From an uncultured cyanobacterium (lineage in GTDB: Bacteria > Cyanobacteriota > Cyanobacteriia > Cyanobacteriales > CAWCAG01), in NCBI GenBank assembly GCA_963803805.1, contig CAWDOD010000003.1:288001-352000 (forward strand): a stretch of DNA of 64,000 bases, read 5' to 3'. The first letter of the stretch is position 1. Each line of letters starts with the position of its first letter. A program made the translations under genes and the position numbers. Under the pieces are notes generated by a model, which was given only the letters and a program-made list of their open reading frames with translations, had not been told where the DNA came from and did not search any database. Positions 55,894-60,724 of this stretch are shown piece after piece.

Positions 55894-56415
55894 TTAGAAA
55901 AAGACATCCATTTCTGAACGTCCTGTAATTTTCAGCCAGTTTTGAGCTTCAATATAATTGTTGGGGGCTAAGCGAATAGCTTGTTTCCAGTATTCAGCAG
56001 CTTTATTATAAAGTGCTTCTGCTTTGTCACTATTACCATCAAATTTAGCTTGTTCCCCAAGATGGTGGTGAATGACGGCAATATTATTGAGTGCCTGGGG
56101 CATACGAGGATTAAGATCGATAGCTTCGTTATAATATTCTAAAGCTTCTTCATGTTCACCATTGCTAGCTTTAATTAAACCAATATTGTAGAGAATATAA
56201 CTGCGATCATTAGCATCTTCTTCTAACTTCAAGGCTTCAAAATAGTTATCCAAAGCTTCTGCATATTCTCCATCAGCTTGGGCTGCCATGCCATCTCTAT
56301 AATAAGCAAAAGCTTCTTTAGACTGTTTATTAGTGGGCATGACTTTCAGGATGATGTCTGCCATAACAGTAAAGGTTTTATCAATAAAGTTATCGTTACG
56401 TTGAGTTCTCGGCAT
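55894..56415 (-). CDS. ycf3: Photosystem I assembly protein Ycf3
   Basis: [26 protein letters not shown]. Confidence 0.98.
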
Positions 56416-58416: not shown

Positions 58417-59181
58417 TTATTTTTTTTCTTTAAAAGGGCTTTCTGCTTCGAGTTGTTTGATCTGTTTTTGTAGGGCAGTTAATTTTAAGCGTAGTTGAGA
58501 ATCTTCCTGGATATCAAGAAGGCGACAGAGGCGATCGCGCATTTTTTGGTGATGTCTTAAGGTTGTGTCCCAATCTCCTTGTAAACCGTAGCTACGACTA
58601 TTGATTTGTTCTTCTGGCAAGCAGAAAAATACGCCACCATCAGTACGTTGAATACTTCCTTCCCAAAGGTCAAAAACCCTAGCATTGCCTGTAATAGGGC
58701 TATTGCTATTTTGACTGCCATAGATATGAAGACTTAAAAATTCTGATTGTCCTGAGTTACCCATTTGGTGAATAAGTTCGCCATCAACTAATTTTACTTC
58801 TTGGGGTGCAAAGTCTATTCTTTTGGTGGTTCGCAGTATGCCATGTCTAAATTTATAAACGTAATGTTCTGCTATACCAAAACATTGTACTGCACCCCAT
58901 TGAGTGCAACCGTGATCATGAATGGCACTATAATCCCCTGGACTCCAGGACATGACCATGACTTCAAAATGACCTCCATCGTAGACTAGCTGGCGACCAT
59001 AGCTATCAGGAAGGGGATGATTAAAGTTTGCCCAAGGCATTAATTCTTGCGGTGCAATGTTGGCTTTTAAGATGCAGTTACGAACCCCTTCCGGAGTTAA
59101 AATCGAATGTTTTTTCAAACTATTAATTAGCGATTGCAAACTCTTGGGTAGCAATGGAGTTGCATTAGTAGCTTGAATCAT
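58417..59181 (-). CDS. Cysteine/thiol dioxygenase family cupin
   Basis: YGR, W.PG..SAIHDHG, IHQMGN, SLHIYG. Confidence 0.85.
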   Translation of the reverse strand: MIQATNATPLLPKSLQSLINSLKKHSILTPEGVRNCILKANIAPQELMPWANFNHPLPDSYGRQLVYDGGHFEVMVMSWSPGDYSAIHDHGCTQWGAVQCFGIAEHYVYKFRHGILRTTKRIDFAPQEVKLVDGELIHQMGNSGQSEFLSLHIYGSQNSNSPITGNARVFDLWEGSIQRTDGGVFFCLPEEQINSRSYGLQGDWDTTLRHHQKMRDRLCRLLDIQEDSQLRLKLTALQKQIKQLEAESPFKEKK

Positions 59182-59506
59182 TTTTCTAATCCTTTAACTA
59201 ATTTATTTCTAAGGTAGAAACTAATACTTAAAGAAATCTGATAAATGTTCATTTTAGCCTTAGAATAGTTTGAGCAAATTCTTAGGTAATCCTCATCTAA
59301 AGTATAAATAGTGAACCTATGCTAACTATGATAATTTTAGTAATTTACATATGATATAGATGTAAAACGACATAGATATGAAGGCTTAGAGGCCAGTGCT
59401 TATGAAAGCTGGACTAATTTAGTCAGCGCTGGGGGAAATATGCTTCAGAAGTTGGAGAGAAACATAAAATTAATTTTGCTTAAGTACTTACCTATGGTTA
59501 TCTTGC

Positions 59507-59535
59507 TTGACGAAAAGAAGACCTTTTGTTAAAGT
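59507..59535 (+). promoter_or_regulatory. Sigma70-type promoter of the DAHP synthase leader
   Basis: TTGACG (59507-12), 17-bp spacer, TAAAGT (59530-35), extended -10 TG. Confidence 0.75.
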
Positions 59536-59562
59536 AAGCAAAGCTATTAGATATCGTCAATA

Positions 59563-59619
59563 ATGTTCTCCAGTTTCCAGGATTTTTACTTTTGGTTTAA
59601 ATCGGTTCGCCGCGAGTGA
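59563..59619 (+). CDS. Aromatic-rich leader peptide 1 (MFSSFQDFYFWFKSVRRE)
   Basis: 18 codons with 5 Phe, 1 Tyr, 1 Trp; its 3' end can pair with the 5' arm of terminator 1. Confidence 0.8.
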   Translation: MFSSFQDFYFWFKSVRRE

Positions 59620-59647
59620 ATCTAGCTTTGTCTGGAATCTCCCGGTG

Positions 59648-59677
59648 GACCGCAGAATTAAAACTGCGGTCTTTTTT
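59648..59677 (+). terminator. Intrinsic terminator 1 (attenuator)
   Basis: GACCGCAG-8 nt-CTGCGGTC-T6. Confidence 0.88.
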
Positions 59678-59713
59678 ATTGCTCGAATTTTCCCAACTCC
59701 GTTCCAAAACACC

Positions 59714-59770
59714 ATGAGTTTCTACTTTTATTACTTTCACTTTTTTTGGCCTAGACAAAGTTCCGGGTAG
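59714..59770 (+). CDS. Aromatic-rich leader peptide 2 (MSFYFYYFHFFWPRQSSG)
   Basis: 18 codons; 9 of 10 consecutive residues are Phe/Tyr/Trp; its 3' end can pair with the 5' arm of terminator 2. Confidence 0.85.
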   Translation: MSFYFYYFHFFWPRQSSG

Positions 59771-59794
59771 ATAGCCTCATGCCGTTGTTTTATC

Positions 59795-59828
59795 AAGCCT
59801 GGAACTGAATCAAGTTCCGGGCTTTTTT
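59795..59828 (+). terminator. Intrinsic terminator 2 (attenuator)
   Basis: AAGCCTGGAACT-6 nt-AGTTCCGGGCTT, running into a T6 tract 38 bp before the ATG. Confidence 0.88.
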
Positions 59829-59866
59829 ATTGTCCTACTACTATAAATTAAAGGAATCATTGCTTC

Positions 59867-60724
59867 ATGTTAGGTGCTAAACTCGCCCTCAAATCTCTAT
59901 CTCAACCCACAAGTCTGATCAACATATCCGATCAAGTTACCATCGGTGGTTCAGAAATTGTTATTATTGGTGGCCCCTGTGCGGTAGAAAATTTAGAGCA
60001 AATGGAAACTGTTGCAGAAAAACTTGCAGCAACTTCAGTACAAGCTTTGCGGGGTGGAGTCTATAAACCTCGCACCTCTCCCTACTCTTTTCAAGGATTA
60101 GGTAAAGAAGGATTAGATATTTTTACTACTATTAAGAATCGTTGGCATATACCTGTTGTTTCAGAAGTTATGGCTATTAGTCAAATTGAAGAGATGACTG
60201 CTTGTATCGATATGTTCCAAGTTGGTAGTCGTAATATGCAAAACTTTGATTTGTTGAAAGCTTTAGGACAAGCAGGGAAGCCAGTATTACTTAAACGAGG
60301 TTTGGCTGCAACCCTAGAAGAATTTATTTTCGCCGCAGAATATATTTTAAGTCACGGTAACTCCCAAGTTGTTTTTTGCGAAAGGGGTATCCGTAGCTTT
60401 GATAATTACACTCGTAATGTTTTAGATTTGGGTACGGTAGCAGCTTTAAAACAGTTAACTCACTTACCTGTAATTGTTGATCCTTCCCACGCCGCCGGGA
60501 GAAGAGAGTTAATTGCGCCTTTGGCTAAAGCGGCGATCGCCTGTGGTGCTGATGGTTTGATTATCGAATGTCACCCCACCCCCAAAGAGTCTATTTCTGA
60601 TGCTAGTCAAGCTCTTTCTTTAGAAGAAATGGTAAGTTTAGTTGCTGATCTCAAACCTATTGCTAAAGCAGTAGAACGCAATATAGCAACTTCATCACCT
60701 AGTCGTGAACTTTCTTTAGTTTAG
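59867..60724 (+). CDS. aroF: DAHP synthase, type I-beta, short form
   Basis: GPCAVE, GGVYKPRTSPYSFQG, GSRNMQN, LKRG, CERGI, DPSH, IECH. Confidence 0.93.
   Translation: MLGAKLALKSLSQPTSLINISDQVTIGGSEIVIIGGPCAVENLEQMETVAEKLAATSVQALRGGVYKPRTSPYSFQGLGKEGLDIFTTIKNRWHIPVVSEVMAISQIEEMTACIDMFQVGSRNMQNFDLLKALGQAGKPVLLKRGLAATLEEFIFAAEYILSHGNSQVVFCERGIRSFDNYTRNVLDLGTVAALKQLTHLPVIVDPSHAAGRRELIAPLAKAAIACGADGLIIECHPTPKESISDASQALSLEEMVSLVADLKPIAKAVERNIATSSPSRELSLV

Follow-up and report, generated by a model that had tools for sequence, protein, structure and literature searches.

Introduction

Leader-peptide attenuation is a textbook mechanism that needs a ribosome close behind RNA polymerase. A close known counterpart is offered by the Escherichia coli trpL-trpE and pheL-pheA systems, in which codons for the end product lie in a short leader ORF, terminator and antiterminator exclude each other, and a ribosome at the stop codon occludes an arm of the alternative structure (described in parts of PMC11802643). 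The locus considered here is alike in all three respects, but it has no sequence or Rfam relationship to these leaders, its sensor covers three amino acids, it consists of two serial modules and it belongs to another phylum. It also differs in that a local hairpin follows the antiterminator arm and none pairs the regulatory codons with that arm.

With regard to the regulated gene, the nearest counterparts are found outside the enterobacteria. In Corynebacterium glutamicum a Phe-Tyr-Phe leader, aroR, precedes an operon headed by the gene for DAHP (3-deoxy-7-phosphoheptulonate) synthase, aroF, and ribosome stalling raises read-through (Neshat et al. 2014, as summarised in PMC11802643). Compared by description, that system differs in belonging to the Actinobacteria and in having a single module, and the relevant part of the summary mentions no Trp codon (PMC11802643). 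A predicted uORF of Acholeplasma, uORFC-13-1, similarly combines Phe codons with an intrinsic terminator and occurs only upstream of aroF, the DAHP synthase gene, according to part of PMC8632094; it comes from yet another phylum, exists as a prediction only and is likewise compared here by description. Tandem attenuators are described for the Salmonella mgtCBR leader, whose two ORFs respond to different signals and regulate a virulence and Mg2+ operon (described in part of PMC3641672), whereas in the present locus the same aromatic codons are found in both leaders, each of which is followed by an intrinsic terminator of its own.

For cyanobacteria the record is sparse. In 2016 a group working on attenuators stated, in a section of PMC4833913, that reliable data on attenuation were lacking for these organisms. 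Part of a 2026 preprint on Synechocystis speculates that a 45-aa protein might serve as the attenuator peptide of another gene, aroQ. A conserved cyanobacterial small RNA, ncl0160, is said in a passage of PMC4734099 to encode a peptide of 23–25 aa; going by that description, which reports 83 homologues with mostly TAA or TAG stops, it is unlikely to be the element described below. Full-text searches of openly accessible literature returned no report of the element or of cyanobacterial leader-peptide attenuation.

The analysis presented here concerns a stretch of 64,000 nucleotides from the genome of an uncultured cyanobacterium, referred to below as the window. It makes it highly probable, on comparative grounds, that positions 59507–59866 are the leader of a DAHP synthase mRNA containing two ribosome-mediated transcription attenuators in series.

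Architecture of the locus

All parts of the putative regulatory unit lie consecutively on the forward strand: a promoter-like site, a leader ORF, an antiterminator, a terminator and the gene. The promoter-like site (59507–59535) consists of TTGACG and TAAAGT separated by 17 nt, with a TG preceding the −10 element at 59530–59535. Among 53 related loci, the pattern TTGAC-N17-19-T[AG]NNNT occurs in the 110 nt that precede module 1 in 45, compared with 7 in a control stretch. The 5' leader that begins at this site (59507–59866, forward strand) holds the two modules, the second of which ends shortly before the gene.

The downstream gene (59867–60724, forward strand) encodes a type I-beta DAHP synthase of 285 aa, which matches NF006421 with 386.9 bits over profile positions 70–337 of 338. 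The protein is a catalytic barrel only: the Pfam search returned PF00793 alone, and no PF18152 regulatory domain. The same genome contains a second DAHP synthase of 352 aa, 47% identical to the attenuated one and encoded outside the window on the reverse strand (G000:C2:854546–855604; positions 247–1305 of locus L252), which carries the ferredoxin-like domain PF18152 at its N-terminus and has no aromatic leader ORF in the approximately 210 nt upstream. In related DAHP synthases this ferredoxin-like domain mediates feedback inhibition. If PF18152 plays that role here, the 285-aa enzyme, which is devoid of it, would be controlled by transcription instead.

The neighbour on the 5' side of the leader is a divergent ORF of 254 aa (58417–59181, reverse strand) with no NCBIfam match. 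Since it is located on the opposite strand, the terminators of the leader do not close an upstream transcript. Positions 55894–56415, farther away, encode what we take to be a Ycf3-like TPR protein.

Comparison with known RNA families provided no name for the element. An Rfam cmscan of 59150–59900 with E up to 10 gave seven weak rows, all far short of their gathering scores; the best reached 24.7 bits where 45 are required. None of the Rfam Trp, Phe, His, Leu and Thr leaders, nor the T-box, matched at gathering score, and the sole amino-acid-related row, the trpB motif RF04312, reached 18.8 bits against a gathering score of 59.

A crude scan of the genome for small ORFs rich in one residue or in aromatics and followed by a terminator returned 33 rows, among which only the two leaders of this locus are attenuator-like. 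Three other rows were considered and rejected: in one the terminator lies between convergent genes, one precedes a patatin-like ORF, and one has no ORF of at least 80 aa within 1.5 kb downstream. A tiny ORF, MHTTTIHT, followed by a terminator-like hairpin is found upstream of a patatin-like ORF outside the window, at about G000:C3 469430–469456 on the reverse strand; it resembles a Thr-rich leader, and the gene downstream of it is not biosynthetic.

Leader ORF 1 and its aromatic codons

The first leader ORF, MFSSFQDFYFWFKSVRRE (59563–59619, forward strand), comprises 18 codons, five for Phe and one each for Tyr and Trp, and ends with TGA at 59617–59619. The regulatory codons are TTT TAC TTT TGG TTT (F-Y-F-W-F) at 59584–59598. 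No clear Shine-Dalgarno sequence precedes the ATG in this window.

The frame of this ORF is conserved. In a MAFFT alignment of 102 module-1 sequences, 99 of them distinct, which was fitted to no structure, an in-frame ATG lies within the matched stretch in 92 of the 99 distinct sequences, the stop falls in one alignment column in 95 (TGA in 94), and the gaps in the N-terminal part of the leader come in multiples of three. The distance from the last aromatic codon to the Val codon that opens the antiterminator arm is exactly two codons in 85 of 99. Counting back six residues from the last aromatic one, all are aromatic in 73 of 99 sequences and five of six in a further 18, and the commonest form of the run is YFYFWF (28 of 99). 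The leader had been described in the sequence-only reading as Phe-biased; this holds for the present genome but not for the conserved core, which is a mixture of Tyr, Phe and Trp and is not Phe-specific.

Alternative helices of module 1

The principal claim of the sequence-only reading was that the last leader codons pair with a segment on the far side of the stop codon, and direct inspection of the sequence confirms it. CGGTTCGCCG (59603–59612) and CGGTGGACCG (59643–59652) are antiparallel and form 10 bp, of which two are G-U (59607:59648 and 59609:59646); the proposed extension is also present, with GAG at 59614–59616 facing CTC at 59639–59641 beyond a C/C mismatch (59613/59642). The 5' arm of this antiterminator, segment A, thus spans 59603–59616, over the last leader codons, and the 3' arm, segment C, spans 59639–59652. 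Positions 59647–59652 of segment C are at the same time the 5' part of the stem of intrinsic terminator 1 (59647–59677), detected by a terminator scan, which has nine pairs (59647–59655 with 59664–59672), an 8-nt loop and, after 59672, the T-run TTTTTATTGC. These six nucleotides are common to both helices, so that the antiterminator would sequester part of an arm of the terminator, as had been suggested. At the tip of the antiterminator an inner hairpin (59621–59625 with 59632–59636) appears in the fold; it is paired in 66% of alignment cells, with some compensatory changes in a region where the MAFFT alignment is uncertain.

The two folds are close in energy. Over the whole module the terminator state amounts to −33.9 kcal/mol and the forced antiterminator state to −32.2 kcal/mol, which upholds the view that the alternative fold is competitive. 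The antiterminator is present in the minimum-energy fold of the 299-nt leader, and is itself the minimum-energy fold of nascent RNA ending at 59652 or 59663; in folding of this window it therefore forms in the nascent RNA before the 3' arm of the terminator exists. The fold of 59542–59680 is not better than those of shuffled sequences (z = −1.56, with 11 of 200 shuffles as good). As the single-sequence fold is not distinctive, the case above chance rests on conservation and covariation.

Both were assessed in the MAFFT alignment. The ten antiterminator pairs are paired in 90.3% of cells, compared with 25–46% in slid controls, and four of them show compensatory changes, in 42, 13, 7 and 4 sequences. 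The nine terminator pairs are paired in 99.1% of cells, compared with 29–62% in slid controls, and five are compensatory. Not all of the proposed 10-bp helix fared equally well: nine of its pairs are conserved, but the outermost one, 59603:59652, is unpaired in 62 of the 99 distinct sequences. Position 59648, which belongs to both helices, differs along with its terminator partner in 20 of 102 rows; in those 20 rows pairing with its antiterminator partner is still possible (U in 16, C in 4). RNAalifold, run on the same alignment, returned the non-shared part of the A:C helix together with the terminator, and added one pair that this window lacks, having a C/C mismatch there, but that is formed in 89 of 102 rows. 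Judged from these alignments, both the antiterminator and the terminator are maintained by compensatory changes.

A third structure, absent from the sequence-only reading, competes with segment C for segment A. This local hairpin, hereafter A:B, pairs 59604–59610 with 59616–59622 around a loop at 59611–59615, with the stop codon in its 3' arm. Until segment C has been transcribed, this hairpin is the minimum-energy fold, and when the whole module is folded it occurs together with the terminator in the structure of lowest energy; alone it has −5.4 kcal/mol, and −2.1 kcal/mol with its two outer pairs opened. Its seven pairs are paired in 92.5% of cells against 17–46% in slid controls, with one compensatory pair (five sequences of one genus); covariation is thus thin, column shuffles give nearly as much pairing (92.1%), and conservation of the 3' arm is confounded with that of the stop codon. 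More speculatively, A:B is a candidate for a lock on segment A or for a pause hairpin, which would make termination the default. Its fast formation during an upstream ribosome stall could, on the other hand, oppose antitermination.

A classical 1:2 hairpin was also sought in module 1, but the aromatic-codon stretch and segment A showed no pairing that is both stable and conserved. Such a hairpin is usual in enterobacterial attenuators, and the mechanism works without one. A long-range helix between the start region of leader 1 and the spacer was rejected as a candidate for module 1: cognate pairs reach a mean of −9.9 kcal/mol compared with −8.6 for non-cognate ones, and the cognate is best in 10 of 50 cases.

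Ribosome geometry

The effect of a ribosome on these alternatives was modelled by masking a footprint around the first base of the A-site codon that reached 15 nt back and 9 or 12 nt forward. In this window the outcome is the one anticipated from the sequence alone: the antiterminator is lost with A-sites from 59599/59602 through the stop codon and kept when the ribosome is placed at the aromatic codons. The same geometry is found among 47 orthologues. In unmasked nascent RNA the antiterminator is the minimum-energy fold in 45 of them, the exceptions being G066 and the relic G067 described below. A footprint at the stop codon removes it in 47 of 47, in agreement with the claim that a ribosome reaching the stop melts the helix, although this agreement is in silico. 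With the footprint at the Trp codon, 5–9 antiterminator pairs remain in 44 of the 46 orthologues that have such a codon, and none in G066 and G148.

At equilibrium the balance is different. With the ribosome masked at the aromatic codons the terminator retains a mean pair probability of 0.83–0.89 (0.83–0.98 with the longer footprint), being favoured because it is able to displace the six shared bases. The choice between antiterminator and terminator must therefore be kinetic, as in other attenuators.

Module 2 and the tandem arrangement

A second module of similar design follows the first. Leader ORF 2, MSFYFYYFHFFWPRQSSG (59714–59770, forward strand), ends with TAG; its antiterminator (59759–59806) pairs 59759–59767 with 59798–59806; and intrinsic terminator 2 (59795–59828), also found by the terminator scan, has a 12-pair stem, with the hairpin at 59795–59824, followed by a T-run. 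Across 39 sequences the antiterminator is 96.6% paired, with four compensatory pairs, and in two genomes the end of the leader and both arms of the terminator have changed together.

Module 2 possesses a long-range helix of its own, between the start region of leader 2 (59690–59730) and the spacer after the stop codon (59771–59797), which encloses the whole ORF. The cognate pairing beats every dissimilar non-cognate one in 24 of 39 cases and 95% of shuffles in 28 of 39. The sequences of the helix differ among lineages with complementarity kept (for example L017, L025, L038 and L051); the copy in this window is weak, at −9.8 kcal/mol. Since the helix crosses the module 2 antiterminator, it could serve as an anti-antiterminator or as a mask of the start codon.

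A covariance model of module 2, R2, detects it in 52 of 151 genomes of the order. Comparison with the list obtained for module 1 with the corresponding model, R1, gives 44 genomes with both modules, three with module 1 alone (two of these decayed) and eight with module 2 alone. R1, built from 12 module-1 sequences, also matches module 2 weakly at L043 1343–1458, L045 361–476 and L198 1323–1431, with 23–24 bits and E of about 0.002–0.008. On these similarities the two modules may share an origin by duplication.

Distribution across genomes

Searching 61 relatives at the DNA level gave matches in 14 genomes, and 14 of the 15 loci lie beside a DAHP synthase gene. Within the order, R1 identified the element in 47 of 151 genomes and 28 of 80 genera, with exactly one match in each genome. 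In the sample of the class it was present in 54 of 151 genomes, and outside the order in 51 of 142; none of 98 genomes from nine families seen only in the phylum sample, and taken as other classes, gave a match. DAHP synthase lies downstream at 45 of the 47 order-level loci and at all 17 class- and phylum-level loci with flanks.

The two order-level exceptions are of different kinds. At the locus of G097 the contig ends, while the element of G067 (L061) is a relic in which the hairpins persist and the leader has decayed; it lacks a start, retains few aromatic codons and has no gene after it. A third genome, G148 (L197/L050), was counted among the 45 solely for its remaining gene fragment: a deletion fuses module 1, inside the terminator, to an internal fragment of DAHP synthase.

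An exact pattern scan with one genome per species extended the range further, to at least 120 stretches. Among the 80 of these that were examined, the conserved GTT codon is in the frame of an aromatic-rich ORF in 78, and two are chance matches (in a delta-proteobacterial MAG and a Lachnospiraceae MAG). The matches listed include the names Nostoc, Calothrix and Microcoleus and Leptolyngbya-type records, as well as five MAGs of 4.7–7.7 Mb titled Obscuribacterales, Melainabacteria or 'Cyanobacteria bacterium SZAS LIN-3'. In these five, whose completeness is not given, PF00124 (photosystem reaction centre) finds no match, and the control Synechococcus elongatus does match. The element lies upstream of a DAHP synthase match in all five, as it does in L104, from a MAG titled Proteobacteria. 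R1 scores 35–80 bits on these six loci, which means that the phylum sample or its stricter filters missed that lineage. The device thus seems to extend beyond the photosynthetic class, as far as can be judged from MAG titles, which are not firm taxonomy; transfer is possible as well.

In L089 and L132, from MAGs titled Candidatus Obscuribacterales that both lack a PF00124 match, both leaders have Tyr-only runs, encoded by differing nucleotides: MSPRNFYYYYSQEVRLT and MTRKYYYYHNDEVHQM, with YYYY in the second leaders. A DAHP synthase match follows downstream. Such composition suggests that the tandem of L089 and L132 is a Tyr-specific version of the device.

Proposed mechanism and alternative explanations

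Taken together, the conserved ORF, its codons, the alternative helices, the cognate gene and the in silico footprint geometry support the ribosome-stalling attenuator that had been put forward from the sequence alone. In the proposed mechanism transcription would start a few bases past the −10 element, and a ribosome would translate the 18-codon leader while RNA polymerase advances. With charged Phe-, Tyr- and Trp-tRNA plentiful, the ribosome would reach the TGA at 59617 and cover segment A (59603–59616); segment C (59639–59652) would then be free to pair with 59664–59672, and the transcript would stop at the T-run after about 135 nt. With aromatic tRNA poorly charged, the ribosome would stall at F-Y-F-W-F (59584–59598), 5–19 nt upstream of segment A, which would pair with segment C before the 3' arm of the terminator is made, and the polymerase would read into module 2. 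There the same test would be repeated before read-through into the gene. In the absence of a stalled ribosome, the hairpin at 59604–59622 may hold segment A, or it may pause the polymerase. Because the sensor contains codons for all three end products, the device would read the whole pathway. Translation of the leader, the timing of events and the response to amino-acid supply are what we infer from this arrangement.

Among the alternatives, the one that survives best, while still improbable, is that the short terminated RNA or the aromatic peptide acts in trans, cis control being secondary. It has a precedent in Sinorhizobium, where sections of PMC6614838 and PMC7298713 describe such roles for the trpL attenuator RNA and peptide, and it would agree with the strong nucleotide conservation over the 116-nt element, with its invariant and near-invariant columns, and with the conserved V-H-R-E at the C-terminus of the peptide. 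The codons for this C-terminus, however, make up the antiterminator arm, and they show covariation with segment C, so that RNA pairing explains their conservation, whereas the N-terminal part of the peptide varies freely. The element, moreover, is single-copy and stands beside DAHP synthase (45/47 and 17/17 loci, as above), and in one genome it decays along with the gene. An additional role in trans, beside control in cis, is conceivable.

Very unlikely, in our estimate, is a riboswitch- or TRAP-like terminator/antiterminator switch in which the conserved U-rich stretch serves as binding site for a protein or small molecule and the ORF is untranslated. The stretch in question, TTTTAYTTTTGG, is highly conserved in nucleotides, Phe codons are TTT in 278 cases and TTC in 37, and no clear Shine-Dalgarno sequence is seen; but the frame, start (92/99) and stop (95/99) are kept, indels come in threes, and no Rfam family matched. 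Tyr codons, furthermore, are free to vary synonymously (TAT 105, TAC 91), and in the two Obscuribacterales-titled MAGs the run consists of TAC and TAT only and its residues are still aromatic. Conservation of frame, stop, spacing and aromatic identity with varying codons argues for the codons, and not an RNA motif, as the sensor.

A chance arrangement, in which a complement to an ordinary terminator arose by accident and regulates nothing, can practically be dismissed, for although the single-sequence fold is not better than shuffles, conservation with covariation in more than 100 genomes contradicts it, and with the upstream gene (58417–59181) on the other strand the terminators end no upstream transcript.

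The reading of the leader as two serial ribosome-mediated attenuators invites a further hypothesis, which is in our opinion rather doubtful as it stands: that the tandem is an ancient invention of the phylum, predating the split between photosynthetic and non-photosynthetic lineages, and that its modules are non-redundant, reading translation elongation and initiation separately. The anti-antiterminator of module 1 would then be the local hairpin, situated after the arm and not before it, and that of module 2 would be the long-range helix, enclosing the leader ORF including its start codon. If this were true, the conservation of the tandem would show close transcription-translation coupling throughout Cyanobacteriota.

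Significance

The element described here, recognised by comparative sequence analysis, is deeply conserved and probably a ribosome-read attenuator, in a phylum with none on record. If the attenuator operates as proposed, it would allow transcription-translation coupling in cyanobacteria to be read out directly, in a single-copy element that is easy to mutate. It would also be the first known RNA-level control of the entry step of the shikimate pathway in these organisms, which would be relevant to strains engineered for aromatics, and the element would constitute a new RNA family for genome annotation. Finally, its presence in genomes in which no photosystem reaction-centre match was found bears on the age of this style of regulation.
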